IMG/VR virus record: IMGVR_UViG_3300006226_000018
Location: 13,224 to 77,223 of that record
From: a virus
Taxonomy: Duplodnaviria > Caudoviricetes
DNA: 64,000 nucleotides
Strand: one strand, 5' to 3'
Shown: in pieces, positions 3,743-36,843 of the stretch
Numbering within the stretch: position 1 is the first letter of the stretch
Layout of the letters: each line of letters opens with the position of its first letter
Program-made: the position numbers and the translations under genes
Notes under the pieces: model-generated
What the model was told of the DNA's origin: nothing
Database searches by the model: none
What the model saw: the letters and a program-made list of their open reading frames with translations, nothing else

Positions 3743-3747
3743 TTGGA

Positions 3748-19746: not shown

Positions 19747-20371
19747 TTACAGTTTCTTCCACCTGTTCCGCTTCTTCAACTTCCATAATTTCTTCAATCT
19801 CATGCACAGCATCCAAATATGGATTCTCATCGGGGTCCCACGCCACAACACCCTGATTAAACGCAATCATTTCATTCATATCTTCATCAAATTCTTGAAT
19901 TATACCCAACTGCGCATCCAAACATTGCTCGACCATCGGCCAATAATCCTTGCACACTTCCCCCGCCAAATTATTGATGGCCTGTATAGTATTATCATCA
20001 ATCAATCCTTCAAATCCCTCGGGCAGCGTAAACGGCATTAATTTCTTCTCACGCTTCATTTGCTCAATTTGAGCGCACTGTCTTTTCACACCCCCTTTAT
20101 ACTCTATACCCTGTCTTGCTGTTTTAGCACGAATAGTTTTCATCCACTCATTCATACTTATTTTTCGTGCCCCGCGCACCTCCCGCCGCTCCCTGCCGGT
20201 CAGCGAATCAGTAAGCACCTGCGCCAGCGAATCCAACGGCACCTGTTTTCCTCTATTACCCCGCCGCCGTCTCCGCTCGCTGGGCCTAGAAATCTCAGGA
20301 GCATCAGGAATATCTCGGTTAATATCCTCTAACATCTGTTCGATGAGATTATCAAGTTTTTCAAAATCCAT
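19739..20371 (-). CDS. Hypothetical protein
   Basis: 210 aa, coupled in the operon. Confidence 0.6.
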   Translation of the reverse strand: MDFEKLDNLIEQMLEDINRDIPDAPEISRPSERRRRRGNRGKQVPLDSLAQVLTDSLTGRERREVRGARKISMNEWMKTIRAKTARQGIEYKGGVKRQCAQIEQMKREKKLMPFTLPEGFEGLIDDNTIQAINNLAGEVCKDYWPMVEQCLDAQLGIIQEFDEDMNEMIAFNQGVVAWDPDENPYLDAVHEIEEIMEVEEAEQVEETVND

Positions 20372-21022
20372 TTAATCCACCCTCAATTCCCGCTCCAATT
20401 CTGTGTCCAAATCTTCTAAATCCACATTCAACCCGTAATCATAACTATCGGACGGCGTTGCCAACCCTTCCTCCACCATCCGCTCAATCAGCTTATCAAC
20501 ATACTGCCGGGGCACAATCTCCCGCAACAACTCAAACACCCGAATCATCGCCTGTTGATTATCCAGCAGCGCCCACAGCGTTTGTCCCTTATACGCCGCG
20601 CCAAGTATCTTCGACTTTCTATCCATCGCCCGAAATACATCAGCCACATGAATAGCCGCTCCCTCAGCAGCCATCATATTAGTAAATCCTGTCTGTATTA
20701 TATAATCGAGCACTTCGGTGTCATTACGCACAGCGGATTCAGGATTCACTCCAATATCAGACAAATCCTGCACCCGCATTTCTTCCTGCCGCAGCCTGTA
20801 ATCCTTGATATAAACGTTAAGAGAAGTTATTCCAAACTCATCAAAATCCGGGTCCTTGCGCGTAATCTCCTGCATCATCTCCCGCGCTGACGAACCAAAC
20901 AATATCCAGCTATCAATCTGCTCCCTCCACGCAGACCTGCGTATAAGATCAGCTCCCTTACCAATCGCCGCTTCCCTCACACCACGTATAGTCTGCCGCC
21001 TGCCGCTTCCTTGCCCCCCCAT
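20372..21022 (-). CDS. Candidate terminase small subunit
   Basis: 216 aa; MGGQGSGRR N-terminus, HTH-like region and acidic tail; assignment mostly by style and position. Confidence 0.4.
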   Translation of the reverse strand: MGGQGSGRRQTIRGVREAAIGKGADLIRRSAWREQIDSWILFGSSAREMMQEITRKDPDFDEFGITSLNVYIKDYRLRQEEMRVQDLSDIGVNPESAVRNDTEVLDYIIQTGFTNMMAAEGAAIHVADVFRAMDRKSKILGAAYKGQTLWALLDNQQAMIRVFELLREIVPRQYVDKLIERMVEEGLATPSDSYDYGLNVDLEDLDTELERELRVD

Positions 21023-21453
21023 TACTTATCAACCTTCCTTATACACAGCTCCAGCAAATGCGGGTGTAAATGAATATTCCCCAGCACCTTTGAAAACTCC
21101 GGCACAATCTTAATAAGAAACTTCTTATTCCAATCCTCCATCGCCGCATAAAATCCCCGAAACTTCTTGCTGAACACAATCACCCGATACTTCTTCTCAT
21201 TCGTATCAGGAGCCGTCACCTCAATAATATCCCCCTCAAACATCCAAACCCCTTCACGGTCAGGCTCCCCCACACACTGTCCAATCGTCCCCGAGCTAAT
21301 CTGAAACCGCCCATCATCATTCACAATATACGTACACCCATTATGAAAATCTTCTTCCAAATGCCCAATCTCCATCGTATCCATAACACCCGACAGCATC
21401 AATTGCCCCCGAAACAAATACCTCTTGTCATATCGCGTTTTCAACCCTGCCAC
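21022..21453 (-). CDS. YopX family protein
   Basis: FRG...GQCVGEPDREGVWMFEGDII motif. Confidence 0.75.
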   Translation of the reverse strand: MAGLKTRYDKRYLFRGQLMLSGVMDTMEIGHLEEDFHNGCTYIVNDDGRFQISSGTIGQCVGEPDREGVWMFEGDIIEVTAPDTNEKKYRVIVFSKKFRGFYAAMEDWNKKFLIKIVPEFSKVLGNIHLHPHLLELCIRKVDK

Positions 21454-21929
21454 ACCCCAATCTTCTCTTTCAATTCAGGCATATCGAACAAATTACCCAC
21501 AACCTCCAATTGCTTATGTATCGTCAATGATAACACATTCCTAATCGACGGCACATCAACGGCAAACCGCGCCTCCATCTCATCCCAAACTATCTTCCCA
21601 TACCAATCACCATGCCACAGCGACTTAACAACATCCCCCTCAAATATCGCCACCCCATCATTATCATCCACTCCCGAACACATTCCCAGCGACTCCGGCA
21701 CAATCTCATATATCCCATCACGACATACCATATGCACCCCATCACCCTTCAACAACTCAGGAGCCACCCTCCCCACCAGCCATATACCCTTCTTCGCCGT
21801 CCAACGCCCCCTGCTCAAATACCGCGCCGCCACATCCCCACAATCAATCTTACTCAGCAACAACTTCGGTATCCCCGCCACCTTAGTTATTTTTTTCTCC
21901 GTCCACACCGGCTGCTCTCCCTGTTCCAT
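21441..21929 (-). CDS. YopX family protein
   Basis: GMCSGVDDNDGVAIFEGDVV...LEVVGNLFDMPEL motif. Confidence 0.8.
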   Translation of the reverse strand: MEQGEQPVWTEKKITKVAGIPKLLLSKIDCGDVAARYLSRGRWTAKKGIWLVGRVAPELLKGDGVHMVCRDGIYEIVPESLGMCSGVDDNDGVAIFEGDVVKSLWHGDWYGKIVWDEMEARFAVDVPSIRNVLSLTIHKQLEVVGNLFDMPELKEKIGVWQG

Positions 21930-22117
21930 TACTTAATCTCCCTCTCTCTCGTCCCCCAAAACGCAAACACAATCGAACCCACCAACGCCACACCCAGCAC
22001 AATCAATACAACCAACGTCCACATATCATTCAGTCCCTCCATACACTCCACATACCAAGGCCCGTACCCACCGCAATCAGCACCACCGATATTATCGTCA
22101 TCCACCCATTCATTCAT
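21929..22117 (-). CDS. Small single-pass membrane protein (62 aa)
   Basis: LVVLIVLGVALVGSIVFAFW TM segment; coupled to YopX. Confidence 0.55.
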   Translation of the reverse strand: MNEWVDDDNIGGADCGGYGPWYVECMEGLNDMWTLVVLIVLGVALVGSIVFAFWGTREREIK

Positions 22118-22175
22118 ACCACTCCCACAAATACCACAATATCAACAACCAAATTACCACCCACGGCATAACCAT
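22110..22175 (-). CDS. Micro-ORF, 21 aa hydrophobic peptide MVMPWVVIWLLILWYLWEWYE
   Basis: Hand translation; overlaps both neighbours. Confidence 0.35.
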   Translation of the reverse strand: MVMPWVVIWLLILWYLWEWYE

Positions 22176-22297
22176 CTACCCACCCTACTCACCAACACCA
22201 TCGCCTCTATCCCCAACCCCACCAACAAACACAGCATCCCCGCCCCAATTATCAAACGAATCACCACATCCACAACATAACCCAGCACAACCATCAT
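22154..22297 (-). CDS. Micro-ORF, 47 aa membrane peptide
   Basis: MMVVLGYVVDVVIRLIIGAGMLCLLVGLG...; ATGA overlap with the upstream ORF. Confidence 0.45.
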   Translation of the reverse strand: MMVVLGYVVDVVIRLIIGAGMLCLLVGLGIEAMVLVSRVGRWLCRGW

Positions 22298-22398
22298 TCC
22301 TCATCATCCCCCCATATCACCCACATGCAATAAGCCACCATCATAATCACTCCCCACGCCACCAACCCAACCCCAATCATCCCCCAATTCATACTCAT
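22294..22398 (-). CDS. Micro-ORF, 34 aa membrane peptide
   Basis: MSMNWGMIGVGLVAWGVIMMVAYCMWVIWGDDEE; G-rich SD. Confidence 0.45.
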   Translation of the reverse strand: MSMNWGMIGVGLVAWGVIMMVAYCMWVIWGDDEE

Positions 22399-22402
22399 CG
22401 CA

Positions 22403-22483
22403 TCAATCCCCCGTCAATAACATAACAATCCCAATAACTATCAGCACCAGCAACGCCATTATCTCCAAATTCATTGTACACAT
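22403..22483 (-). CDS. Micro-ORF, 23-26 aa membrane peptide
   Basis: (MCT)MNLEIMALLVLIVIGIVMLLTGD; G6 SD-like run upstream. Confidence 0.4.
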   Translation of the reverse strand: MCTMNLEIMALLVLIVIGIVMLLTGD

Positions 22484-22836
22484 TCCCCCCAAATACCAAC
22501 AGCAAGCCACCACCTCTCAACAGCTTGCTTCCTTTTTCATTCTTCAAACTTTTTGAACTTCGTCCAAAGTATAAGCTCGACCACTTTCTACTTCAAACAT
22601 AAGAGACTCATCCCATCTCTCCCAAACACAGTCCCAGCCAATCAAACCAGCATTTCTCACACAGATTCATCTTCTAATACAGCGGATTACTCCACAGCTT
22701 TCAATCAACGTCAGCTTCGATTCACACGCACATCACTTCCGCTCGATGCCGCATTGCACTTTCGCCCGACTCTCTACTCACAGGAGGAAAGAAGAATCAT
22801 AAAGAATACGCTGTCAAGATGCCCGAAACCAGATAA

Positions 22837-22865
22837 AGTATATCATCTAATTCCATGCTTGACAA
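22837..22865 (-). promoter_or_regulatory. Leftward sigma70-type promoter
   Basis: TTGTCA-17 nt-TATACT with extended -10 TG; points into the structural operon. Confidence 0.75.
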
Positions 22866-22887
22866 GTCCATAACAATCCATTAAGAT
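22859..22887 (+). promoter_or_regulatory. Rightward sigma70-type promoter
   Basis: TTGACA-17 nt-TAAGAT; its -35 overlaps the leftward -35. Confidence 0.75.
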
Positions 22888-22893
22888 ACGTCC

Positions 22894-23067
22894 CAGCTAG
22901 ACCGAACGTTATCGCTTTCTTCGGCGTATTCTTCTTTTCACGTCAATCGGTACGCGCACCGGTGGCATGAAGCGCGAGGATTAAAGATACGACCGTATAG
23001 AAACTAGAGCTAGTAGGCCAAGCAGGGGGAATTGTATCAATCTAATTGTGTACGATTCCCCTGTTTT
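22894..23067 (+). ncRNA. Candidate ~170-nt small RNA
   Basis: Between the rightward promoter and a ~12-bp stem (23023-23063) followed by TTTT; only a 5-codon ATG ORF; internal hairpins. Confidence 0.45.
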
Positions 23068-23075
23068 AACTCAGT

Positions 23076-23117
23076 TTAGTGTCACGCTGTTCCACAGTTA
23101 GTGTCACGCTGTTCCAC
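23076..23117 (+). repeat. Two perfect 20-bp direct repeats at a 22-bp period
   Basis: TTAGTGTCACGCTGTTCCAC at 23076 and 23098. Confidence 0.9.
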
Positions 23118-23816
23118 GCTCCTTTCTATCGCTGCCATGTTTGGTTTCCGCATGGTACGGTGGTTTTTACTACAAGTTACACCCTGCTACACTGGTTCCA
23201 CAGGTAACGTTTCAATCCACGATAAGCTCCCTTGTACACGAATACAGGGGAGTTTATTTTATGTGTGCATACAGGACTGTTAGAACATAAAGAGTAAAAA
23301 AAATTTTTGAAAAATTTTTAGATGAACAATAACGGTTATTCTTTTGAAAAGGTATAGCTAGTACCCCTCTATAGCTGGATTTACTATCTCTCGTTTTGAA
23401 CGCTGCGATGAAAGAGAATCACTCACGCTCCGGTCTGCGCTCTCTGACGGAACACATGGGTACACTTTGTTGACACTCTGTACACACATTGAATGGAATA
23501 GCTATTTTGTTGAATGAAATAGCTTTAATAGCTATGCAATTTCAAATGGTTACTTTAAATTATATTGTTCCGGGTAACTCTTAACTTTAAATTTTAAATC
23601 GGTAAACGGTAAACTACTTTATATTATAAGATAAATGCTCTGAATAGGCTTCATATAAGCAATTGTTTAATAAATACTAATATCATTTGAATGATAATTG
23701 AGTAAACGATAATCTTATTGAATGAGTATCAAATATCATTAAATGCTTGTATTTTGTGTGATTAGGATTATACTACTAATTAGATACACAATACTAATAT
23801 AAAGGAAGTGTTAAAA

Positions 23817-25028
23817 ATGAGTAGTAACAACCTGTACAAACAAGCAATAGCGCAAATAATGTCAACGTTTAACGTATCGCGAGTAACTAACGACGTAACA
23901 AGCGAAACAATAGTTACAAGCGATACAGAACATCAAAAAATCGTATGTTCAATAACTAAAGGATTGATAAAGAGTAAACGATTTAATGACATTGCAGTAT
24001 ATGACTATATTTTTAATTGCAATGTCATAACAGATAATGCAAGTAATTTCAATTGTGAGGATTATATCAATCAAGCACTCTTGCATTATTACGACGCGAT
24101 ACGCATAAACAATAGCGAGTATACCGCATTTACAACGGTAAACTACGATAATAAACGTAAAGGCTATAACAAGCCGTATACCGTAAGCTATGCAAGCCGT
24201 AAGCATGATATAACATTTCACGCGATAGAATCGCTCAATCCGATTCTTTACGCTATAGATATGTTATGGTCAGAAATTGACATAAGGAACAAACAAGCCG
24301 ATAAACAAGCGTATCTTGACGATTTACACGTAACAAGCGAGTATCAAGCCGATATAAACAGTGACGATAAACTCGCTCAAAGAATAGCCATACTCAATAA
24401 TGCGATACTCAATCCGATTGAGCATGTAGAAAATAACGACGATTTAAAACGGCAAAAATTAGCATTATCCATTTATGCTAATTCTAAAGGCATTAACATT
24501 TTATCTACTGCTATTAAAGATAAAGAGGATAAAATGTTTGATAGTTTAACTCTCAATCGTGTTTTTGTTGAAATAGTAAAGGATAGAAATGATTTTTTAA
24601 AGCATATTAAACTATGGAAAACAAGACACGACGAAACAAGCGCAACGGCAACGGTAAACGATAAGAAATATATCGTTAAACAGTTAAAAACGTTGAAAAG
24701 TATCGCAACGGCTTATAAACCTCTTTGGGATATATACCGTAAAGATACAGTTTTAACGGCAAAACAGTATATACTCGATAAAATCGAAAGTTTATCGCGT
24801 ATAAACGACGACGACGACACAACGACGACGACGGCAACGACGACAAACGCAATGATACGTACAACGGCAACGGCAACGGCAACGGTAAACGGCAACGGTA
24901 AAACATTACTTGCAAGCGTTGACATTATCGAAACATGTCGTAAACGTAGTTATACCGCATGGTTATTAGGCAACGATAAAATCAAGTATCAAAACAAGCC
25001 GATTTTAGAATTGCCCAAAGTAGTATAA
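23817..25028 (+). CDS. Orphan ~403 aa protein, AT-rich, in its own transcription unit
   Basis: ORF track 23808-25028; AAGGAAG SD favours ATG 23817; Thr/Ala low-complexity near the C-terminus; followed by a terminator. Confidence 0.75.
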   Translation: MSSNNLYKQAIAQIMSTFNVSRVTNDVTSETIVTSDTEHQKIVCSITKGLIKSKRFNDIAVYDYIFNCNVITDNASNFNCEDYINQALLHYYDAIRINNSEYTAFTTVNYDNKRKGYNKPYTVSYASRKHDITFHAIESLNPILYAIDMLWSEIDIRNKQADKQAYLDDLHVTSEYQADINSDDKLAQRIAILNNAILNPIEHVENNDDLKRQKLALSIYANSKGINILSTAIKDKEDKMFDSLTLNRVFVEIVKDRNDFLKHIKLWKTRHDETSATATVNDKKYIVKQLKTLKSIATAYKPLWDIYRKDTVLTAKQYILDKIESLSRINDDDDTTTTTATTTNAMIRTTATATATVNGNGKTLLASVDIIETCRKRSYTAWLLGNDKIKYQNKPILELPKVV

Positions 25029-25045
25029 ACGCAGTAATAGCAACG

Positions 25046-25080
25046 ATTGAGCGAGTTTTTATAACTCGCTCAATTTTTTT
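25046..25080 (+). terminator. Intrinsic terminator
   Basis: ATTGAGCGAGTT / AACTCGCTCAAT 12-bp stem plus T-run. Confidence 0.88.
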
Positions 25081-25082
25081 TG

Positions 25083-25262
25083 TGTTTTGTGTGATTTTTT
25101 GTCATTCCTATTCTGTATATATAGTGACAAGCGCAACGACGACGGCAACGACGACGGCAACGACGACGGCAACGACGACGGCAAAACAAGCCGATACGAA
25201 TTTTTTAAATTCGTACATGTTTTGTGTGATTTTTTGTCGTTCCTATTCTGTATATATAGTGA
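25083..25262 (+). repeat. 45-bp direct repeat pair (1 mismatch)
   Basis: TGTTTTGTGTGATTTTTTGTC(A/G)TTCCTATTCTGTATATATAGTGA at 25083-25127 and 25218-25262. Confidence 0.92.
25133..25184 (+). repeat. 12-bp tandem repeat x4.3
   Basis: GCAACGACGACG units at 25133, 25145, 25157, 25169. Confidence 0.92.
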
Positions 25263-25334
25263 GTAGTCAATCTGATACGCTTGACTATAGGTTACTACTT
25301 ACTATGTAACATGCGTGAAAGTGAGGGATTGAAC

Positions 25335-25532
25335 ATGGCACGACGTAACAAGCATCAAGCTATTCAATCCCAACTGTACCTTGAAGCAGTTACGCAGAAT
25401 GAGCAGTTACAAGCTGGCTCAAGCAAGCGTAGCAAGCCCGCGAGATTGCAGGCTGATTCAAAGGTCCAGTGGGATAGTAGCTGGCAGCAGTTATTGGACT
25501 TCGCGATTGCAGGCTACGAGAAGCTGACGTAG
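25335..25532 (+). CDS. Hypothetical protein (65 aa)
   Basis: GAGGGA SD before ATG 25335. Confidence 0.5.
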   Translation: MARRNKHQAIQSQLYLEAVTQNEQLQAGSSKRSKPARLQADSKVQWDSSWQQLLDFAIAGYEKLT

Positions 25533-25623
25533 CTGATTGCAGGCTAAAGTAATTGCCTGCTAACAAGCAATAGTTGATTGCAGGCTATTGTTTGTGAGCA
25601 GTTAATCACTTGGAGGTGAAAAC

Positions 25624-25794
25624 ATGTCAACGCACGAGGAATTATTGCAGGCGATAGCTCGCAAACGCGAGCGTCAGGAGCTGCAAGTGTTGCAGGCGCG
25701 GCGTAATGCCGACACGCCGGATTGGGCGAACGATGAGTTCGCCCTGTGGCTGGCGCAGGGTAGCTTCTCCATTGGCGCAACACGGATAGCATAG
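25624..25794 (+). CDS. Hypothetical protein (56 aa) MSTHEELLQAIARKR...
   Basis: GGAGGTG SD; below the ORF-track cutoff. Confidence 0.6.
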   Translation: MSTHEELLQAIARKRERQELQVLQARRNADTPDWANDEFALWLAQGSFSIGATRIA

Positions 25795-25809
25795 CAGGGA
25801 GGGATAGCA

Positions 25810-25989
25810 ATGTTGCAGGCGCAGGTAATACAAGCCACGTCCGACGACGGCGCAGGAATGAGCGAGGCCGAATACAGGCAGTGGCGTATCAAAACACGGC
25901 AAGCAAGCAAATTGCTGGACGAGCTTGACAGCATCGTTCGGCAGCTCACACGGCGCGAGCCATTGCAGCAGGTCATCGGCAAACGGTAG
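25810..25989 (+). CDS. Hypothetical protein (59 aa)
   Basis: GGAGGG SD; below the cutoff. Confidence 0.5.
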   Translation: MLQAQVIQATSDDGAGMSEAEYRQWRIKTRQASKLLDELDSIVRQLTRREPLQQVIGKR

Positions 25990-25995
25990 CAGGCC

Positions 25996-26583
25996 ATGAT
26001 AGCTACCGTGCAGGCCGAGGGATTGCTGGTCACTACCGGCTATACGCCGATTGCAGGCCAGTACGAAGAATATGTTGACGAGCGCGGACATACTCGTCGG
26101 CGTAAAACAGACGCGAGTGACGCGCAGAGAGGGGATAGCAAAATGACAGCAACGCAGGCAATGTTGGAGGGTAACAACGTCGTAGCAGTACAGAGCCACT
26201 ATCGCAGGAAGAAAGGCTCGAAAGCGGATGCGAGCGCGGCGTTGCAGGCCGTCACGCCGAACGTGGGCACGATTGCCGACTTGGAGAGGCAGCTCGCGGC
26301 GTTGCAGGCGCAATATGCCGTAGCCAAGCAGCAGGAAGCGGACAGCGCAAAAGCGGCAGCGGCGGCGAAAGCGGCAGAGCGCGAACGCGCTGAAAAGGAG
26401 CGCGAATATTGGAAATATTTCGCCTTCACCGAGATAGCAGGTGAGGCGCAGACGTTGCGGGTCTACGACCTCGGACACAAGAAGGTCGTGCAGGGCTTGA
26501 AGAATGGCAAGGTCCTGTGGGCGTTGCACAGCGACCGCTTGAATGACGCGCAGAAAAGCGCGTTGCTGGACGCAATAGCGTAA
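25996..26583 (+). CDS. Hypothetical Ala-rich coiled-coil protein
   Basis: ORF track; true start may be the later MTATQ with GAGGGG SD. Confidence 0.55.
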   Translation: MIATVQAEGLLVTTGYTPIAGQYEEYVDERGHTRRRKTDASDAQRGDSKMTATQAMLEGNNVVAVQSHYRRKKGSKADASAALQAVTPNVGTIADLERQLAALQAQYAVAKQQEADSAKAAAAAKAAERERAEKEREYWKYFAFTEIAGEAQTLRVYDLGHKKVVQGLKNGKVLWALHSDRLNDAQKSALLDAIA

Positions 26584-26953
26584 CGCGAACACGCACATTG
26601 CAGGGCATACAGCATCTGGACGCTGGCGGCATTGCCGCGAAACCAGTAATTGCCCGATGAGTAAACTTGCAACGAGCAGGCTCAATCAAGCAACACACAA
26701 AGCGATTGGGCTTGCTAATGCAGGCTTACGCGATTGCTTGCAAATAACTTGGTGAAACGAGGTGAAAGCAATGCCCGATTGCAGGTATTGCAGGGAAAAC
26801 CAGAGCAAAAGCTGGTGCTGCGAGTTGCCGTGCGGCTACAGCGAGTGTTCGTTGGCCGCACACTTGCGGCACGGGTTCACAGAATCCGAGTGGCGGCAGA
26901 TATTCATGCTGCCAGAGCAGGCGGAGCAGGCGTAGCTGATTGTTGGTTGGATT

Positions 26954-27398
26954 TTTCAAACTTGGGATTGCAGACGGGGACGGGAGCTACCCGTACCCCT
27001 AAATACTACTGGAGGTGTTGTAGATGATTCAGAACAAGGTGTTGCCCATGCAGTGCAGGATGACGGAGAGCGTCGTAAGCTGCGACAAATGCGCGATCAA
27101 GATGTGGCTGACGGCGGCGTTGGGCGCAGAGCCCGAAAGCTGGACCCCGGAAGCCATTGCCATGCTGCCGTCGCGCCGGGACAGGCACAGGGCTCGGAAA
27201 TATATCAACAATTGCGGGGAGCAGCGGGTGTATAACTCCGAATTGCACAGGAAGCACGTAGCGGCGCAGGCGGCGCGGCGGGCGGCGTAATAGGAATTTT
27301 CAAACTTGGGTGCGGGTGCTGAAATGGGAGCTACCCGTACCCTTGATTGGAAATTTCAAACTTCCAGTAACAGGCGCAAATGGGAGCTACCCGTACCC
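26954..27398 (+). repeat. Bipartite element TTTCAAACTT-N18-GGGAGCTACCCGTACCC x3
   Basis: Units at 26954-26998, 27298-27342, 27354-27398; identical arms, variable 18-nt spacer. Confidence 0.9.
27024..27290 (+). CDS. Hypothetical Cys-containing protein
   Basis: GGAGGTG SD, 88 aa. Confidence 0.6.
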   Translation: MIQNKVLPMQCRMTESVVSCDKCAIKMWLTAALGAEPESWTPEAIAMLPSRRDRHRARKYINNCGEQRVYNSELHRKHVAAQAARRAA

Positions 27399-27462
27399 TT
27401 GTTTGCGCTTGTTATTGCAGGTTTGATTAGCGACCTGACACCAATACTTGGAGGTTACTGAA

Positions 27463-28032
27463 ATGACTGTCAGCAAATTTGAAATGTTACGAGTACACCG
27501 AGTACCATTTCGGGTAGTGTGTAACATCTTGAACCAGTTTACCAATGTGGACGAACGCTACTCGCCAGAAGCAATGGTGGCGTTGGAGAACAACCCGGAG
27601 CAGGTGGCCATAGCCTTGTCCCATTCGTGGGGCGGCAGGCGAATGGTAAACCCCTGCACCGGGTGTAAAGGCACGGAGTACGTGGACGGCTTCGATGGGA
27701 GCGACAACAATACGTTCACATTGTTTGGCCCGGACGAAATCAACGAAGTCTGCTTCGAGAGCGGAAGCAGTGGAACATTTATACGCGCATGGTATCGGGG
27801 AGGACAGCGGGAATTTAATTGGAGCATTGAAATAGGCTGTCCCGTCATGCAAGATGGAAGCCTGTATCGCCGTCACTACTGGCAAGTGTTCGCATCGCAA
27901 GTGGTAGCATTTTGCGATGCGGAAATCGCGCAGATGAAATATGAACAGCGCGAGCCGCTTACCGATGAACGCATTGCAGACCTGCAAGAAACGAAACGGG
28001 TAATCGAGCGACAGGCGCAGTACAGCCTGTGA
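27463..28032 (+). CDS. Hypothetical protein
   Basis: GGAGG SD favours ATG 27463. Confidence 0.65.
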   Translation: MTVSKFEMLRVHRVPFRVVCNILNQFTNVDERYSPEAMVALENNPEQVAIALSHSWGGRRMVNPCTGCKGTEYVDGFDGSDNNTFTLFGPDEINEVCFESGSSGTFIRAWYRGGQREFNWSIEIGCPVMQDGSLYRRHYWQVFASQVVAFCDAEIAQMKYEQREPLTDERIADLQETKRVIERQAQYSL

Positions 28033-28050
28033 AAGGAGTGATACCATGCG

Positions 28051-28350
28051 ATGGTAAAGCTGTCAACAGCGAAGCAACGCATCGAGTTTGGGCGGGAGCT
28101 GATGAAAACAGGGCTAAATCAGTTCCCGCCCCGACATTGTGGGGGGAAGCTACACCCACATCACTGTCACGGTTACGCCGATGAAACACCGGCGTATGAC
28201 GAGTGGCGTTGCCTGCTGGAATTGCATGAAGAACAACCGCATCGTTTTGAGCTGGCATGGCGGTCGATGGACGCATTGAAACAGGCCGACCAACGGTATC
28301 TATCGCGCTGCGAGCGCAAATATAGCTATGCGGAAGGAGGGAAGAAGTAA
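28051..28350 (+). CDS. Hypothetical protein
   Basis: AAGGAG SD; early gene train. Confidence 0.6.
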   Translation: MVKLSTAKQRIEFGRELMKTGLNQFPPRHCGGKLHPHHCHGYADETPAYDEWRCLLELHEEQPHRFELAWRSMDALKQADQRYLSRCERKYSYAEGGKK

Positions 28351-28592
28351 TGCGATGTAGGGATATTTCAAACGGGGAGTGCCGGGTGTTCCCGGAAACA
28401 ACCCGTGGGATTGCATGGGCGAAGCAAGAGGCTGACCGGTTGCGGCAACTGGCGGCCAACACTGACGTACCACAGGAACGGGGGGTACTGTTAGTTAAAG
28501 CTGCGGATGAGCTTGAGGACGTGAGCGTCAACATGGCCTCAAGGCTTATTAACAGGGATTGCGCCCATTGCCCACGCAATCCCGAACGATGA
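28350..28592 (+). CDS. Hypothetical protein
   Basis: Stop/start overlap, GGAGG SD. Confidence 0.6.
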   Translation: MRCRDISNGECRVFPETTRGIAWAKQEADRLRQLAANTDVPQERGVLLVKAADELEDVSVNMASRLINRDCAHCPRNPER

Positions 28593-28975
28593 TGAAAGCT
28601 CTGCACGGCTGGCCCTCGGACTGGACCAGCGAAGTAGAGCAAATGTGTGAGGCAATCGTGCTGATTGCCAAGCACGAGGACGTGAAGGTGAATTGGAAGG
28701 ACGACAACGCCTATATAGCGTTCGTACCTTCCCGCAATCGAATCGAAATCAGCCGTGGTGGGGTAATAGACACCTACCATACGGTTGGTGGCCGGTACGT
28801 CCAGTTGAACAACGCGACGGGCAAATATGAAGTAATAGCCCGTCGCATGTATTCAACAGCAATTCAGCTCGGAGTGGTAATGGCAAATATGCCGCCCGAC
28901 AGGATTGAACACTATGGGGGATTGGAGGACATTGCCTATGTGCTATACATGGCAATGGAAATACGGGCATGTTGA
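28559..28975 (+). CDS. Hypothetical protein
   Basis: ORF track; real start probably MMKALH. Confidence 0.55.
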   Translation: MRPLPTQSRTMMKALHGWPSDWTSEVEQMCEAIVLIAKHEDVKVNWKDDNAYIAFVPSRNRIEISRGGVIDTYHTVGGRYVQLNNATGKYEVIARRMYSTAIQLGVVMANMPPDRIEHYGGLEDIAYVLYMAMEIRAC

Positions 28976-29292
28976 AAGAGACCGAAACCCGTAACCGCAT
29001 GTTAGAAACACTACCACAACGCACAAAGGACGCGCTACAGGCATTGTGGGAGCATGGGGTAGCCACGCAGGTGTACTATCTGCTGGCCGCTTGCAATTGC
29101 ATGGCCGAAGCAAGCCGATATACCGGCTGCCTCGTCTGCAACCGTGATGTGGTGTATCACTGGCAATGGGTGGACGGGGTAAACAGGGAGTTGAAAGTAA
29201 CTTATTGCGACTACTGCGGGTGGAGGTCAGTTCCCGATGGCGTCCTGCAAGCACCTGTAGTAAGATACGCAGAAGGAGGTGAAACACCATGA
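28969..29292 (+). CDS. Hypothetical protein with CxxC motifs
   Basis: CLVC and CDYC; coupled. Confidence 0.6.
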   Translation: MLKETETRNRMLETLPQRTKDALQALWEHGVATQVYYLLAACNCMAEASRYTGCLVCNRDVVYHWQWVDGVNRELKVTYCDYCGWRSVPDGVLQAPVVRYAEGGETP

Positions 29293-29458
29293 AGAAGCTG
29301 TTTGTGTAGACAATTAAGGCCGTACACCGGCGACAGGCCCGGTACTCCCAACAGCGGGGGAGCCGGGCCTTTTCAATTGCAGTCGCAGGTAATTACTTTT
29401 GTACGCACAAAGGGAATTACTTGTGTTTGCAATACATTACAGCGAAGGAGTGAGGGGT

Positions 29459-29806
29459 ATGCGGGAATTGAAGTGGGAGAGCTTCCGGGAAATGTTCGAC
29501 CTCGGTGTTCCACGTGATGGGCATGTAACGTGGAAACGGGAGGACAGTAACTTTACCGAATTTGAGTTGCGCTGCAAAGAGCGCGAAATGGAGGTATACG
29601 GGTACGGATACTACGACGGGGACTACCCGGTGGCCTTCCTGCGTGTTTATTATCACGTCACAACCAGCGGATACATGGTTGTGAAGGGCTATGGCGTGTA
29701 CTTGGGCAAATATATCCACCCGAAATACTGCCCACAACAGATTCGATTGTGGATACAGACCCGGATTAACGAGCTACCGGGCTGGGACGGGAGAATGGAC
29801 GGGTGA
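29459..29806 (+). CDS. Hypothetical protein
   Basis: GAGGGG SD before MRELKW. Confidence 0.55.
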   Translation: MRELKWESFREMFDLGVPRDGHVTWKREDSNFTEFELRCKEREMEVYGYGYYDGDYPVAFLRVYYHVTTSGYMVVKGYGVYLGKYIHPKYCPQQIRLWIQTRINELPGWDGRMDG

Positions 29807-30039
29807 TTATCAAATATCCGGTATTGAACAACGGGGACATCTGCTATACGTTGACTCAGGCGTTGGAGTGCGCCATGAAGCAACCATTGCTCAAATGGTG
29901 TACATACCTGTTTCGTTCACCAGCGTCCAGTATTTTGCACCGGTCGATGATACGCCTGTATGTGGAGCGGGACCACACAGGTAAGCTGGTTGATTATCAG
30001 GTGCGCACCGACCGAGTACAGGAAGGATGGGAGGTGTGA
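29803..30039 (+). CDS. Hypothetical protein
   Basis: GTGA overlap; 78 aa. Confidence 0.5.
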   Translation: MIIKYPVLNNGDICYTLTQALECAMKQPLLKWCTYLFRSPASSILHRSMIRLYVERDHTGKLVDYQVRTDRVQEGWEV

Positions 30040-30040
30040 C

Positions 30041-30190
30041 ATGGTTGTACGTGGGATGACGAAATTTGACCGACTGCGGGAGCATGTCGGCCACCACATC
30101 GTTTGCGTAATATATGGTGATGTCGAAGTCAGCATCGAGTGCGAGGACTGCAATGAGGTCCTCTATAGCGTACCAAAGGAGGATGATTGA
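30041..30190 (+). CDS. Small zinc-ribbon-like protein
   Basis: GGAGGTG SD; HVGHHIVC...ECEDC. Confidence 0.55.
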   Translation: MVVRGMTKFDRLREHVGHHIVCVIYGDVEVSIECEDCNEVLYSVPKEDD

Positions 30191-30474
30191 GCATGACAAA
30201 TAGCGCAAGCACATATCTATTCCAAACGAACGTCCTAAACATGACACAAGAACAGTGGGACGACGTTATGGACAAACTCGACCGCACCATCACAGTGCGG
30301 GAGGCCAAGGAGCTGTACGAAGTCAAGCAGAAATCGACTTCCGTACATTTCGCGGCATATCAGGCCGCTGTCGCTGAGGAAGATGCAGCACGGAAAGAGT
30401 ACCTGATCGAGATGCGCAAGGCGTTCCAAGCATACGTGAAGGAACGTGCCGAAGGTGGGGGTGAAGATGCGTGA
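30187..30474 (+). CDS. Hypothetical helical protein
   Basis: ORF track, coupled. Confidence 0.55.
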   Translation: MSMTNSASTYLFQTNVLNMTQEQWDDVMDKLDRTITVREAKELYEVKQKSTSVHFAAYQAAVAEEDAARKEYLIEMRKAFQAYVKERAEGGGEDA

Positions 30475-30598
30475 AACAGCGTGGGGAGGCACTTGACGAG
30501 TTGCTAAAGCAGAAACGGGAATGGAAATCCAACAAGCGGAAACGTGAGTTGGAACGCACCCGCACCCTCAAACTCGCCGCCGCGCAAGGTAAGCCGCG

Positions 30599-30886
30599 AT
30601 GACGTTATTATCCCGGATCAAGCAAGAGTATGAGAACCGAGATGCCGTATATCGTGCTGACTGCCTGCTACGGGGACAATGGCACAGCATCTGGAGCAAG
30701 TACAGGGAGTTGCGGGACGAGCTGGCGAAGGTAGAGCAGCGGCTACTCCGCACATACGAGCAGAACAAACAGGGCCGTAACATCGACTTTCATTGGCCGG
30801 ACGAAAGAAAGCCGAATTACGAGCCTATTGTGTGCCCCACTTGTGGGCATCAGACATGGGAGCTGCCAAATGCCGAAGCGGAATAG
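30599..30886 (+). CDS. Coiled-coil protein with C-terminal CPTC
   Basis: ORF track. Confidence 0.5.
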   Translation: MTLLSRIKQEYENRDAVYRADCLLRGQWHSIWSKYRELRDELAKVEQRLLRTYEQNKQGRNIDFHWPDERKPNYEPIVCPTCGHQTWELPNAEAE

Positions 30887-31127
30887 GCGCGGAGGCATCT
30901 ACTGCCTAGAGTGCAAGGTCTGTACCCGTAAAGTACAGAATTGCACAATACTTCTTGAGACTGCAAAGCAATTTCAGCAGTCCGAGAAGGAAATGGAACG
31001 GCTCGCACAGCGGCTAATGGTGCTGATTCACGAGGATATGCGGGATAACGTACCCTGCCTGTTCTCACCATGCCCCTGTACAAAGTGTGAGGCACCAAAC
31101 TTTATCGATCACCGAGAGGGGGAATAG
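30828..31127 (+). CDS. Cys-rich hypothetical protein
   Basis: ORF track; start uncertain. Confidence 0.4.
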   Translation: MCAPLVGIRHGSCQMPKRNRRGGIYCLECKVCTRKVQNCTILLETAKQFQQSEKEMERLAQRLMVLIHEDMRDNVPCLFSPCPCTKCEAPNFIDHREGE

Positions 31128-31129
31128 CA

Positions 31130-31603
31130 ATGAAGTTCAGGACAGACGCAGAGTGGGACGAAACTATTGCTGCGTTGTACAACAGCGCAGATGTACAAGA
31201 GTCGCGGACCACGCATGAGCAACTTGAGCAGCAAACGGCTGAGATGTTGTTGCGGTCTGTGGAGGCCGTCAACAAGGCTGAGGATATGGTACGCCGATAC
31301 TTTGCGGAGGCGGTGACAACCTACAAGAGGCACTTTAACCGCCCCCAAAGGTTTAATGGCACCGAGCAAGAGTTACGGGACCATGTGATTGCAACACCAA
31401 CGGTCCGCAATGCTTTGGGCGACGCACAGGTGGCCGCTGAGGAAGCGGCAGACGCAATACTAATGCACATGAGCGCACATCTACAAATGGAGCAGGCGTG
31501 GAAGGAATATATGGACACGCTGAAAGAAGAATACGCCTTGCTACCATTACATGGCGATGATGACAAGGAGGTAAAGAAGGAGGATGTCGCAAGCACGGAC
31601 TAA
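31130..31603 (+). CDS. Hypothetical helical protein
   Basis: GAGGGGG SD; 157 aa. Confidence 0.65.
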   Translation: MKFRTDAEWDETIAALYNSADVQESRTTHEQLEQQTAEMLLRSVEAVNKAEDMVRRYFAEAVTTYKRHFNRPQRFNGTEQELRDHVIATPTVRNALGDAQVAAEEAADAILMHMSAHLQMEQAWKEYMDTLKEEYALLPLHGDDDKEVKKEDVASTD

Positions 31604-31907
31604 GACTGACATGAGGGCGTACATCTACTACGCCTTATGCCTGCAAGTAAGGTTCTATAGTACGCTGGCCGACGCTCATAAGTGGCGGAACCAAGCCAAG
31701 AATGAGTATTACTTGGAACGATTGGGTCAGGTGCGTAAACTGATGCTCGGTATGGAGGACCTATACCCCGACATGATGGTACGGGATAGAGGCCGGTTCA
31801 TGCCGGTAAGTAGCTATTCACCCCGTGATATTACAACACGAGGGGTTATCCGCTACATGGGCGAGCATAACCAGCCCACAATCTGCATAAGACAGGAGGG
31901 TGAGTGA
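31584..31907 (+). CDS. Hypothetical protein
   Basis: GGAGG SD; 107 aa. Confidence 0.6.
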   Translation: MSQARTKTDMRAYIYYALCLQVRFYSTLADAHKWRNQAKNEYYLERLGQVRKLMLGMEDLYPDMMVRDRGRFMPVSSYSPRDITTRGVIRYMGEHNQPTICIRQEGE

Positions 31908-31910
31908 GGT

Positions 31911-32240
31911 ATGGCATCGGTAAGTTTCAAGTACCCTGCGTACAACCCTCGGCGGTTCAGCCAACCGTGGGGCGCAGTGGTATGGTTCAACGAAATGTCC
32001 CGGTCCGAATATGACTTTAGCAAAGGGACATTCGTTGGGACCGCTGAGGAAGGCGGTCGAGTAATCATTACATGCAAACGAGGGGACATTATCGCGACCG
32101 GCCAGAAGGACTGGCGACGTGGTAAGGGCTACAACACGTTTAACGACTGGTACATAGTAGGCGAGGACGGGGAGCTTACCAAAGTTTCACAGGTGGAAGC
32201 TCTTGACCACTTCAATGAACGAATGGAGGTGCCTCAATGA
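31911..32240 (+). CDS. Conserved-looking phage protein
   Basis: YNPRRFSQPW...GDIIATGQKD pattern; GAGG SD. Confidence 0.65.
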   Translation: MASVSFKYPAYNPRRFSQPWGAVVWFNEMSRSEYDFSKGTFVGTAEEGGRVIITCKRGDIIATGQKDWRRGKGYNTFNDWYIVGEDGELTKVSQVEALDHFNERMEVPQ

Positions 32241-32533
32241 GCAGCAGTGCCGACCTGTATATTCCGAAATTTAACCGGGCGTACATGTGGGGGATTAGGA
32301 GGCAGCTTGAAGATGCCCTGAAAGACCCCTCAGAGCCCCGTAGAACGTTGGAGTGGATGTTCGAGCGGTATCATGACGCTCAAACCGAAGTTGACCGGAT
32401 CAAGACGGATATTACACGTCTGGAGAGAGAGCTACATGCGGCAGGCAAGGAGGTAGATATGGCAATGGACATCTACCTTGAATTTGCAAAGAAGGTATTG
32501 AAACCGGAGAAGCCGGATGCCGCCAGTAGCTGA
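32237..32533 (+). CDS. Hypothetical coiled-coil protein
   Basis: ATGA overlap, GGAGG SD. Confidence 0.6.
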   Translation: MSSSADLYIPKFNRAYMWGIRRQLEDALKDPSEPRRTLEWMFERYHDAQTEVDRIKTDITRLERELHAAGKEVDMAMDIYLEFAKKVLKPEKPDAASS

Positions 32534-32705
32534 CCTTGACAAGTTCTGTGAGGAATTGTATTCTATTCCCACAGTTCGAGAAGCATTTAACACATGGAGG
32601 GCGGCAGTTAAGGCACGGGAGCTGGCCGAACAGTTTGAGGCAACCGCTCAAGACACGTACTATCGTACTCTGGATCGCATCTTCCAGACGATGGGCGTAG
32701 TATAG
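32517..32705 (+). CDS. Hypothetical protein
   Basis: 62 aa, GGAG SD. Confidence 0.55.
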   Translation: MPPVADLDKFCEELYSIPTVREAFNTWRAAVKARELAEQFEATAQDTYYRTLDRIFQTMGVV

Positions 32706-32892
32706 ACAAACAGGCTGATGACCGGCCACTAGCTAGGCTGGCACAGTCATATACGCAAACGGGCCGGACGGAATACCGAAGATGCCCGAATGATTGCGGG
32801 AAGGGAGTGAGTCCACCGGCTGTATCAGGGTGAATTTGACAACCATAGTTTATTAGAGGACTTTTCACAGAGGGGCACTGCGTCACAGCGCG

Positions 32893-33450
32893 GTGTCCCT
32901 CACTCTTTTGGGAAGGAGAGATGAGCAGATGAGCAGAGGGTTTTTCGACATCAACAACTATCTGAACACCACCAATACTGGAGAGGGGGAGAACATCCAT
33001 ATGAGCAACGACACTACTACAACCACCAAGAGGAAGCGCGGAAGGCCAACAAAGAACGCCGCCGCCGCCAACACTACTACCGCTACCGCTACGCCGCCTG
33101 TTACCAAGCCTGCCGCGATAGTATCAACCGCACCGACCGCACCGACCGCTGAGGAACTGGCCGCGCAAATCAAGGAACTGAAAGAGGCTCGCAAGGCTGC
33201 CTTGGAGGCTGAGAAGGCCAGCAAGAGGTATTGGGAGCAGGAAACTGAGGAACAGATTGTCTCGTCGGACAAGAATATCATCACCCTGTTCAGGAACGCT
33301 GGGGTGTTACAAGTGAGTAAACCCATGTGGAAGAATAAATCCGGGGAGATGGTACATGGAAAATCCGTAGGAGTCGATTTACACTCCTTGGGCCGAAATG
33401 GTATCATGGAGCTGGTAAAGGCCCTGACAGCCTACGCCGAGAACGTTTAG
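32893..33450 (+). CDS. Protein with Thr/Ala/Pro linker and a possible PC4-like nucleic-acid-binding domain
   Basis: Likely start MSNDTTT; C-terminal LQVSKPMWKNKSGEMVHGKSVGVDL loosely resembles the PC4/YdbC fold. Confidence 0.45.
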   Translation: MSLTLLGRRDEQMSRGFFDINNYLNTTNTGEGENIHMSNDTTTTTKRKRGRPTKNAAAANTTTATATPPVTKPAAIVSTAPTAPTAEELAAQIKELKEARKAALEAEKASKRYWEQETEEQIVSSDKNIITLFRNAGVLQVSKPMWKNKSGEMVHGKSVGVDLHSLGRNGIMELVKALTAYAENV

Positions 33451-34979: not shown

Positions 34980-35674
34980 TGGGTACAAGAGGTGCAATCG
35001 GATTCAGGAACAGCGGACGGGATTATATAACATACAATCACTTCGACAGCTATCCCGGATACTTGGGAAATGGACTGCTCGGTGAGCTGGCAGAAACGAA
35101 TATCCCGCACTTGCTACACATCGCAAGCAATCTGATACTGGTAAGTGACGACGAGGGCAGCCCGAAGCCGACCGACATCCAAGTCAGAGAGTGCAAGGAG
35201 TACGTGAATCTCACCGTGGCATCTCGCGATGAGTATTCGTGGTACTGCCTGCTCCGGGGCACACAGGGCACACTGAAACCTTACATCGCGAAGGGTTTGC
35301 GCTACATGATCGACAGTAGCACCTTCATATACGATTCGTTGTGGTGTGAGTACGCTTACATCGTAAATCTGGATAAAAACCAATTCGAGTTTTACAAGGG
35401 ATTACAGCTACGGCTGGACCCGACGAACAGGTACAAGGTGGACGAACCGCATGAAGTGCCGTTACTTCCCAACGAAAAAGGCAATGATAATGAGGAAGAT
35501 GCGGACTCGGCGGCAATCAGGAGGCGGTACTACCCCTGCCGACTGTTGGCAGCATATGACCTGAAAGAAATCTGTAACGCGAAAGATGTTCCGGCGATGA
35601 TTGCGCGAATCGTCGCTGATATGGAACAGCGTTCGGAAAAAGACTCCAAATATAACAACGGAGATAACGTGTAA
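34979..35674 (+). CDS. Conserved phage protein (MGTR...YNHFDSYP...G family), function unknown
   Basis: N-terminal motif pattern; coupled to the GATase gene. Confidence 0.65.
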   Translation: MGTRGAIGFRNSGRDYITYNHFDSYPGYLGNGLLGELAETNIPHLLHIASNLILVSDDEGSPKPTDIQVRECKEYVNLTVASRDEYSWYCLLRGTQGTLKPYIAKGLRYMIDSSTFIYDSLWCEYAYIVNLDKNQFEFYKGLQLRLDPTNRYKVDEPHEVPLLPNEKGNDNEEDADSAAIRRRYYPCRLLAAYDLKEICNAKDVPAMIARIVADMEQRSEKDSKYNNGDNV

Positions 35675-36828
35675 TGTGCAGGGTCCTACTAGCGACCAAG
35701 AAACGTCTGCAAGAGTATGAAAAGCAATACAGCCTACTGGACCTGATGCACCATCTGGAAAAAGAGTGCGGCGGTCACGGCAATGGGCTGACACTGTTCA
35801 GCAACAAAGCGGAAGGAAAGTGGAAATCGCCGAAGTATCAGGCGATTTTCCACAAGAAGGGTATGTCATATACCGTGGAAGAAGTGCTTACGCACATACA
35901 GGAACGCATAGCCGACACGGACTTGGTAATGTTCCATACCAGAATCGCCAGCGTGGGTGACATATGTGACGAAATGTGTCACCCATTCTATTACAAAGGC
36001 AAAATCACCACGTGGAACTTACCAACCAATGACGATTGGTGCTTGGAAAACAATACGGAGAATGAAATATGGGGTCAGATGAATGGCACCATATATGACT
36101 TCGATCAACTGTGTGAGCTTGTGGACGAGAACGACACACAGCTCATGCTACGCACCATCATCGGCCTGCCGGAAGCAAAGATTCACAAGGCATTGATAGA
36201 CTCCCGGCAGGTATGGACATGCGTAATCAACGGTGTGCCCTTCGTAACCAAGGGCAACGGGAGCTTAACTGAATGGGTCCCGAGAGATGAGCGCATCAGC
36301 ATGAAGGAGTTTTTCTTCGTAAGCTCGCTGCCAGTGGACTTGAAAAGCGAAAATAGTCCGCTTGGGTATCTGTTCAGTTTTGACGGCACCAAGCGTTCGA
36401 CAAAGAAGCGGTTGGACGAGGACCGATACAACAGGTACGACGATTGGTACTACCGTAATCAGGGTCGTTGGCGTGACGATGATGATGAACGGTACGGACT
36501 GACAACGCACAGCGCAATAGCTGGTATCGGTTACAAGGAAGATGTTATGACCGATGAAGATTTGTTGGACGATGACGATAACTTAGGTGTTGAGTTTGAG
36601 CGTGAAATCGACACCAACGAGGACCCGTCGTACTATGAAGGGTTTGATGCTGGTTACAACGTAGGGTATACCAACGGCGTGAAGGATACCCAAGAAAAAA
36701 TAGAAGCCGCAGCTAAACCCAAGTCTAAATCACCCCCGACAAAGGAGGAACGCTTGGCAGCGTTGAAAGAACATGGAATTGTTACCGTGCAATCCGTAAC
36801 TCCCGGTCAGAAACGACATAAAATGTAG
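35674..36828 (+). CDS. Class II (Ntn) glutamine amidotransferase
   Basis: MCR start (catalytic Cys2), FHTRIAS, CHPF, NGTI, NDT motifs. Confidence 0.85.
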   Translation: MCRVLLATKKRLQEYEKQYSLLDLMHHLEKECGGHGNGLTLFSNKAEGKWKSPKYQAIFHKKGMSYTVEEVLTHIQERIADTDLVMFHTRIASVGDICDEMCHPFYYKGKITTWNLPTNDDWCLENNTENEIWGQMNGTIYDFDQLCELVDENDTQLMLRTIIGLPEAKIHKALIDSRQVWTCVINGVPFVTKGNGSLTEWVPRDERISMKEFFFVSSLPVDLKSENSPLGYLFSFDGTKRSTKKRLDEDRYNRYDDWYYRNQGRWRDDDDERYGLTTHSAIAGIGYKEDVMTDEDLLDDDDNLGVEFEREIDTNEDPSYYEGFDAGYNVGYTNGVKDTQEKIEAAAKPKSKSPPTKEERLAALKEHGIVTVQSVTPGQKRHKM

Positions 36829-36843
36829 AAAGGTGGATGTAAT

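Follow-up and report, generated by a model that had tools for sequence, protein, structure and literature searches.

A bipartite fixed-spacing repeat in the early region of an orphan siphovirus-like phage, tentatively read as a set of cis-acting RNA modules

We analyzed a window of 64,000 nucleotides (nt), positions 13224 to 77223 of a 77,223-nt IMG/VR contig (IMGVR_UViG_3300006226_000018; CheckV completeness, 46%) that represents an orphan long-tailed (siphovirus-like) phage, and characterized a bipartite element, TTTCAAACTT-N18-GGGAGCTACCCGTACCC, present there in three exact copies. The element is a real, non-random repeat, seen in this orphan phage alone. It belongs to a known kind, the conserved phage intergenic regulatory repeat, and probably acts in the early mRNA. 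As to its specific role, we tentatively favor a reading in which the repeat units are cis-acting RNA modules of an early rightward polycistronic transcript, for factor binding or processing.

Searched with up to three mismatches, the bipartite pattern gave three matches, all exact and all on the plus strand (26954–26998, 27298–27342, and 27354–27398; window coordinates here and below), and it matched in 0 of 100 dinucleotide-preserving shuffles. The arms agree at 27 of 27 nt across the three copies; an earlier note on this DNA had described identical 10-bp and 17-bp arms around three 18-nt spacers, and its coordinates and sequences were accurate. The 17-mer right arm alone, again with up to three mismatches, finds the identical three sites (0.06 expected). 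The 10-mer left arm alone, with up to one mismatch, matches 8 times versus 6.04 expected and is not over-represented; it is significant because it is linked to the right arm. The full contig holds three forward and no reverse copies: the exact copies span only 445 nt, with none elsewhere in 77,223 nt.

A repeat finder set the repeating unit at 56 nt (family D5), the second and third units lying exactly head to tail. The units and two further traces of the element, all on the plus strand, are as follows.

26943–26998, plus strand: unit 1; extended left arm 26943–26963 (exact 10-mer 26954–26963), spacer 26964–26981, right arm 26982–26998
27287–27342, plus strand: unit 2; left arm 27298–27307, spacer 27308–27325, right arm 27326–27342
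27343–27398, plus strand: unit 3; left arm 27354–27363, spacer 27364–27381, right arm 27382–27398
28361–28406, plus strand: decayed copy 4; GGATATTTCAAAC-N27-ACCCGT, the 13-mer with one mismatch, at the 5′ end of the coding sequence 28350–28592
30551–30576, plus strand: possible rearranged relic (uncertain); ACCCGCACCC directly abutting TCAAACT, in the gap 30475–30598

The left arm extends in semiconserved form to about 21 nt (TTGRTTGGAWWTTTCAAACTT), and the right arm is partly symmetric (GGGAGC-N5-GTACCC), with G or C at 12 of 17 positions. In copies 2 and 3, the right arm is moreover preceded by AAAT and followed by TTG, and the two tandem units are alike at 38 of 56 nt. An nhmmer profile built from the three units recovers them at E values of ∼1e−17, and its next match is 28361–28406 (E = 0.29). 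We count this site as a fourth, decayed copy because a short pattern recurs there with the same spacing: TTTCAAAC-N{12,42}-ACCCGT matches four times versus 0.01 expected, the fourth time at 28366–28406, and N is 27 in all four. The fixed distance between the arms, claimed from three copies, is thus kept in the decayed one as well. The relic at 30551–30576 shows no significant fold (z score, −0.06).

All copies lie on the coding strand, which supports a role in RNA. Copy 1 sits in the 88-nt gap between genes A and B and copies 2 and 3 in the 172-nt gap before gene C; the gene map bears out the earlier placement of one copy ahead of the gene at 27024 and of the tandem pair ahead of the gene at 27463.

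26771–26935, plus strand: gene A; 54 amino acids (aa), Cys-rich ORFan, upstream of unit 1
27024–27290, plus strand: gene B; 88-aa ORFan with an Arg-rich C-terminal helix, between unit 1 and units 2 and 3
27463–28032, plus strand: gene C; 189-aa ORFan, downstream of units 2 and 3

The distance from the end of the element to the start codon is 25 nt at gene B and 64 nt at gene C, and unit 1 lies 12 nt upstream of the gene B GGAGG. Since no terminator-like plus-strand site was flagged between 25075 and the element (26954), transcription likely reads through into the element from upstream.

The tandem pair is embedded in a predicted structure that is strongly folded and sense biased. The gap 27291–27462 is predicted to fold at −79.1 kcal/mol on the plus strand (z, −8.7) and at −55.5 kcal/mol on the minus strand (z, −4.7), and 27285–27425 reaches −69.9 kcal/mol (z, −9.1), a stability attained by 0 of 200 shuffles. 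The minimum-energy fold contains two long hairpins, which we call H2 and H3.

27294–27356, plus strand: predicted hairpin H2; 24 bp, 3 G·U pairs
27357–27425, plus strand: predicted hairpin H3; 29 bp, 5 G·U pairs, right arm at the tip

The GCGCAAA/TTTGCGC pair that had been seen enclosing copy 3 is real and forms part of the 29-bp helix. H2 and H3 together hold 8 G·U pairs, and their interruptions are A/A, U/U, and C/C, never A·C; if transition mismatches fell at random by strand, an 8-to-0 split of G·U versus A·C would have a one-sided probability of ∼0.004, and such asymmetry is the signature expected of selection on the sense (plus) RNA. Spacer 2 repeats the 3′ half of its own right arm in inverted, imperfect form, and spacer 3 pairs with the unique flank 27401–27417. 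Shuffling the spacer alone destroys the fold in both copies (0 of 300 shuffles each): in the predicted structures, the variable spacers 2 and 3 build the long helices and are specifically complementary to their neighbors.

Copy 1 is predicted to form only a 9-bp hairpin (GGGGACGGG/AGCUA/CCCGU(A)CCCC). A small 5-bp stem, A[C/U]GGG/CCCGU, is possible in all four copies; copies 2 and 3 have U·G in place of a C-G pair, and copy 4, whose 5′ strand is different, retains an ACGGG/CCCGU stem (z, −2.2). By an RNase III-type standard of at least ∼20 bp of near-continuous double-stranded RNA, the predicted H2 and H3 are long enough, whereas copy 1 has its 9 bp only. Intrinsic termination was considered and rejected: H2 is followed by CAAACTTCC and H3 by ATTAGCGAC, with no T run directly after either hairpin, and a terminator scan flags only the 5-bp mini hairpin of copy 3 (27380–27394). 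We also set aside a genome-wide scan for duplex partners of the right arm; the adjacent spacers ranked best on the plus strand, at −27.9 and −25.9 kcal/mol, but shuffled arms reach −21 to −29 kcal/mol, so that the scan taken by itself lacks significance.

Two other observations concern the same stretch. Past H3, a third predicted hairpin (27427–27461; 13 bp) holds the gene C GGAGG sequestered in its stem. On the plus strand of 25446–27416, GATTGCAGGC-like words are densely clustered in one orientation, and the cluster ends inside H3; these 2 kb contain 13 of the contig's 16 plus-strand TTGCAGG copies and 18 copies of TGCAGG. The words occur in all three frames and in intergenic DNA, which suggests a signal at the DNA or RNA level.

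As cis-acting RNA, each module would comprise two parts with a constant distance between them: a single-stranded, A/U-rich tract in the left arm and, downstream of it in the right arm, a G/C-clamped stem-loop (A[C/U]GGG-AGCUA-CCCGU). The modules may be read by an early phage protein or a host nuclease that binds or cleaves RNA in a sequence-specific manner. At the tandem pair, the variable spacers would be recruited into the 24-bp and 29-bp helices, the size of substrates of double-strand-specific RNases (RNase III type), and these helices could cut, insulate, or stabilize the message between genes B and C, thereby setting the relative expression of the downstream ORFan block. The lack of fit between the arms and any sigma-70 geometry also counts for a role in RNA, as does the predicted structure of further gaps in this operon (25533–25623, z of −3.0; 26630–26771, z of −3.5).

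Several results weigh against this reading. Its weakest point is that the structural placement of the invariant arms is not equivalent among the three predicted folds. In copy 1 the right arm is itself a stem-loop, copy 2 uses it as the 3′ strand of H2, and copy 3 carries it at the tip of H3. The mini stem-loop belongs to the minimum-energy fold of copy 1, where imposing it costs 0 kcal/mol; the cost is 3.1 kcal/mol in H3 and 15 kcal/mol in H2. The structure of copy 1 does not reach significance (z, −0.5 to −2.3; −2.25 over 57 nt), and shuffling its spacer matches the native fold in 32 of 300 cases, which is not significant. Folds computed with DNA parameters also beat shuffles (z, −5.7 on the plus and −3.95 on the minus strand), though less than with RNA parameters, and an alignment fold of the three units is weak (−7.7 kcal/mol). 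The 27/27-nt identity of the arms is above what is usual for RNase sites or protein-binding hairpins, covariation is limited to four copies in one genome with no homologous locus, and no Rfam family matches the element. Because the arm positions differ by copy and copy 1 is barely structured, readings of the element as a promoter or as an operator retain some probability; both are taken up below.

No relative carrying the element was found in IMG/VR, in Joint Genome Institute (JGI) metagenomes, or in 185,579 species genomes. In IMG/VR, the exact 17-mer had one unrelated match, coding in appearance, single copy, and without the left arm, and CAAACTT-N{12,24}-GGGAGCTACCC matched seven single-copy chance loci, three of them of one sequence. 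The sole locus among these with any further likeness (L006) reads TTTCAAACTT-N15-GGGAGCTACCCG; it is single in its contig, and a control search did equally well. The 17-mer had 41 single matches in the species genomes, none with the left arm (0/41); the best left-arm match among these loci had at least three mismatches and stood at the wrong distance. Three chance matches to the two-arm pattern came from JGI metagenomes, with spacers of 15, 15, and 20 nt. Blastn of 26000–29000 against phage records gave no match, related loci sought via gene C, the capsid protein, and the amidoligase yielded none, and a literature search with the arm sequences was equally negative. No Rfam family matched the window at the gathering threshold; at E values up to 10, 25000–27600 gave weak look-alikes (microRNA precursors, small nucleolar or Cajal body-specific RNAs, and one small RNA) far below gathering scores, the best at an E value of 0.17. 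Deposited phages are distant: the large terminase and capsid protein share ∼23 to 26% identity with those of the nearest (Myxococcus Mx1, a Microcystis phage, and Streptomyces and Rhizobium phages), and a protein search with the amidoligase returned its own sequence and one match at 25% identity. A scan of the genome and of relatives with variable spacer length had been proposed as a check on the element; within the genome the spacing was kept, and as no relative carries the element, the check can be answered only there.

The chief alternative, possible if rather unlikely, is that the copies are phage-specific promoters, with a −35-like left arm and a right arm covering a −10-like element, the discriminator, and the start site. 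The three promoters would then jointly boost the ORFan block 27024–32870, read either by host polymerase that an unrecognized early protein redirects or by a phage polymerase or σ factor whose gene lies in the part of the genome that the contig lacks. The element is indeed asymmetric and bipartite, has a fixed 18-bp gap, is co-oriented with the genes, and ends 25 and 64 nt ahead of the start codons of genes B and C, respectively. Tandem promoters at operon heads are common in phages (T7 A1 to A3 and N4 P1 to P3), which also counts for a promoter. Against it, a sigma-70-type scan of 22000–30000, which required TTGACA-like and TATAAT-like hexamers 16 to 18 bp apart, flagged nine sites (12.1 expected) and none at the three copies, in agreement with the earlier remark that the element matches no recognized sigma consensus. 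Extracytoplasmic function (ECF)-type promoters place AAC (−35) and CGT (−10) ∼16 to 17 nt apart; both are present here but are separated by 30 nt in all copies. Of the 17 bases that would putatively have to melt, 12 are G or C, and the G·U-biased hairpins imply that transcription passes through copies 2 and 3. The copies are also confined to 1.5 kb: later plus-strand units, past the terminators at 32870, 43007, and 54941, have sigma-70-like candidates and no copies.

Protein searches likewise speak against promoters. Neither Sigma70_r2 nor Sigma70_r4_2 matched in six frames, although the controls were positive in 11 and 14 of 14 genomes, respectively, and no polymerase or sigma domain was detected among 95 open reading frames (ORFs) scanned with Pfam. 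A six-frame search for PF00940 (RNA_pol) gave no match but was uninformative, its control being positive in 0 of 14 genomes. In favor of promoters, CheckV rates the contig as 46% complete, and the gene for a polymerase may be located in the missing part. Of the promoter-like geometry noted earlier, the intergenic placement and the co-orientation with the genes hold, whereas promoter activity finds no support, neither a sigma domain nor, in the 95 ORFs, a Pfam RNA polymerase domain having been detected. Where copies 2 and 3 meet, the minus strand reads GTTTGA-N13-GGGTAC, which is sigma-B-like; this sequence was rejected, as it occurs once and leaves the conservation unexplained. Likenesses to integration host factor (IHF), sigma-54, sigma-28, and sigma-32 sites were dropped on comparison by eye with the consensus sequences. 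In favor of promoters, identity over 27 of 27 nt is typical of those for single-subunit polymerases, such as those of T7 and Syn5, which resemble the element in having an invariant 17- to 24-bp block upstream of genes. Here, though, a second conserved block lies 18 bp upstream and the copies occupy one 1.5-kb stretch; we did not find an invariant block ahead of several middle or late units, as such promoters would show. A further point in favor is that TGGG...CCCGTA is common to the right arm and the 15-bp promoter of the Syn5 polymerase, ATTGGGCACCCGTAA (PMC3950665), a match that needs a 3-nt indel.

That the copies are DNA operators or roadblocks is unlikely. An early DNA-binding protein would bind the 17-bp right arm, would touch the DNA a second time in the near-palindromic left arm (TTGGAAATTTCAA), and would gate read-through into genes B and C or autoregulate them; the candidates are the products of genes A and B. 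Three 17-bp sites with partial dyad symmetry do flank the gene for a small, basic, helical protein, spacer 2 adds a fourth, inverted half-site-like copy, and the sites have a uniform orientation, as do the stoperators of cluster A mycobacteriophages. However, a Pfam scan detected no helix-turn-helix (HTH) or other DNA-binding domain in genes A, B, and C. The AlphaFold2 model of gene B is all helical at a predicted local distance difference test score (pLDDT) of 65 and shows no DNA-binding fold, with no Foldseek match in the PDB at an E value of ≤0.001. Gene A has no family above the Pfam cutoff, only a weak subthreshold likeness to DUF5541 (E value of 0.0063; 17.2 bits versus a cutoff of 25). 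Sites of one operator system, moreover, are usually similar rather than identical, and operators would leave the strand-biased G·U helices unexplained.

We regard it as improbable that the units are recombination scaffolds like the promoter–early stem-loop elements (PeSLs) of T4-type phages, that is, cassettes flanking ORFans that mediate gene gain and loss by short-homology recombination, the tandem pair being the scar of a deleted gene and any regulatory role secondary. The ORFan gene B is bracketed by direct copies, copies 2 and 3 abut, and decayed copies lie further down the same ORFan block. On the other hand, the homology patches measure only 10 to 21 and 17 to 24 nt, no related genome was found to show an indel at the sites, and the unit contains no sigma-70-like promoter. 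The recombination site suggested earlier also lacks a candidate enzyme, since a Pfam scan of the contig proteins found no recombinase. As described (PMC4122927 and PMC2839356), PeSLs lie between the genes of early regions rich in ORFans and combine a promoter with a GGGG...CCCC stem-loop. By these descriptions they resemble our element as short, co-oriented intergenic cassettes that place a GGG...CCC stem-loop by an A/T-rich tract and flank ORFans in an ORFan-rich early region. They differ in having a strong sigma-70-like promoter and terminating stem-loops, as opposed to no hexamers and long hairpins without a U tract here, and in being numerous per genome, as opposed to 3 to 5 copies. The stem-loop and the ORFan context of a PeSL are thus present and the promoter part absent.

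The identical arms around unrelated segments of equal length had also suggested a repeat-spacer RNA, and the junction of copies 2 and 3 can be read as one full 38-nt repeat between two half repeats. We nevertheless think it very doubtful that the units form a mini array of clustered regularly interspaced short palindromic repeats (CRISPR), or an RNA anti-CRISPR, with invariant handles around 18-nt guides. An 18-nt spacer is well below the usual CRISPR spacer lengths, spacers 2 and 3 pair with their own neighbors, and no other spacer match within four mismatches exists in the contig. The 17-mer is multicopy in none of its genome matches (single copy in 41 of 41 genome loci and at the one IMG/VR locus), and no host array was seen. 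PADLOC gave no convincing Cas match among 24 early proteins, only a weak likeness to Csn2 (30187–30474; E value of 0.0049, 14.2 bits), and Pfam gave none. Hardly more probable are processing cassettes for short guide-like RNAs or antisense control as in P4-type RNA immunity, either of which would be a repeat-spacer RNA system unconnected with CRISPR-Cas. In the first, RNAs with an 18-nt variable segment between invariant 5′ and 3′ handles would be freed from the early transcript at the long hairpins and used by a phage protein; in the second, spacer 2, as an antisense copy of the right arm, would act on the other copies and control read-through.

Least probable of all is a type III toxin-antitoxin system, in which the repeats would be the antitoxin RNA, followed by a hairpin and by gene C as a ToxN-like endoribonuclease. 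The layout of tandem repeats, strong hairpin, and a gene of ∼190 aa fits, but the repeats are alike at only 38 of 56 nt with only two in tandem, copy 1 precedes a different gene, and gene C has no Pfam or PADLOC match even at E values of 0.01 to 0.1 and no Atlas lead; among 5.8 billion proteins its sole match was the identical sequence. An integron attC site (no integrase) and replication-origin iterons (no initiator gene nearby) were also considered and rejected.

The cis-acting RNA modules that we favor have partial likenesses among known systems. Lambda-type nut sites (boxA, a spacer, and a boxB stem-loop bound by the Arg-rich N protein, ahead of terminators that are then read through) present, as our modules may, a linear motif followed by a 5-bp stem and a 5-nt loop, in an early operon upstream of a gene for a small Arg-rich protein. 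The left arm is unlike the boxA consensus, the loop AGCUA is not GNRA-like, nut sites occur once per operon rather than three or four times within 1.5 kb, the stem-loop of copy 2 is sequestered (15 kcal/mol to form), and no N-like protein was identified. The RNase III sites of the T7 early mRNA, like the predicted H2 and H3, are intergenic sense hairpins, of at least two helical turns, that lie between early cistrons and have sequence in common; here copy 1 has only 9 bp, and the conserved sequence is placed differently in each helix. The start-associated sequences and their extended versions (SAS/ESAS) of cluster K mycobacteriophages (PMC3203893) are of unknown function and are alike in being gene-proximal, in one orientation, and in some cases composed of two 17-bp blocks and a spacer. 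ESAS have inverted-repeat blocks and a variable 4- to 13-bp spacer and are tied to start codons; the arms of our element are unrelated to each other, its spacing is fixed, and copy 2 is not beside a start codon.

Conserved phage intergenic repeats such as PeSLs, SAS/ESAS, and stoperators are mostly of unknown function. The present element is unusual in combining two unrelated invariant arms at a fixed distance with spacers that appear recruited into long sense-strand helices, and it occurs only where an ORFan block begins, in a phage that has no known relatives. If it is an RNA recognition or processing module, it points to an unrecognized sequence-specific RNA-binding factor among the early ORFans; if a promoter, it implies a new promoter class and an unrecognized polymerase-redirecting protein. 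In either case, the element would offer a way into gene control in a lineage of which no member has been characterized.

In the genome at large, the minus strand leftward from 22100 encodes YopX-like proteins, the large terminase, portal, protease, and capsid proteins, and the tape-measure protein. The plus strand from 23808 to ∼60000 encodes mostly ORFans but also an amidoligase, a DUF932 protein, an MT-A70 methylase, a helicase, HTH proteins, and a dUTPase. An Atlas search with an 857-aa protein gave no usable lead. Canonical sigma-70-like hexamers lie at 22859 (TTGACA-17-TAAGAT) and 46252 (TTGACA-17-TACAAT), and terminator-like plus-strand sites at 25045, 32870 (32870–32901, strong), 43007, and 54941. 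The element stands ∼1.7 to 2.2 kb into a run of small plus-strand genes that begins past an AT-rich 45-nt repeat (25083–25127 and 25218–25262; family D8). The two copies of this repeat, 98% alike, enclose four tandem GCAACGACGACG 12-mers together with a 9-bp hairpin and the T-rich run that follows it (25083–25262); members of the 12-mer family recur within the upstream 406-aa gene. One possible reading of this interval is a gene for a small RNA, with a candidate early promoter on either side.

Several features elsewhere deserve mention. The plus strand of 21900–22550 is almost free of G (GC skew of −0.48 over 20001–22000), and the same interval has several small minus-strand ORFs beside a divergent sigma-70-like promoter pair (22837–22887). 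The noncoding DNA that separates the divergent gene blocks (23080–23117) contains two copies of an 18-nt direct repeat, AGTGTCACGCTGTTCCAC, at a distance of 21 nt. The tape-measure protein has 3271 aa and an internal M23 peptidase domain (L014 7159–16974, minus strand, continuing into the window at 2–3751), and an adjoining tail protein has 2281 aa; judged by these sizes, the tail would be exceptionally long. At 35674–39435, a weak, subthreshold glutamine amidotransferase-like match (E value of 0.0019, 18.7 bits versus a cutoff of 27) lies beside an 863-aa amidoligase-domain protein, with the DUF932 protein and the MT-A70 methylase further on; these four could form a DNA or protein modification module. 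Finally, a 746-aa protein (57560–59800) contains at least six repeats of ∼57 aa, with a period of 171 to 174 nt over 57893–59191, and is probably a repeat-domain virion or fiber protein.

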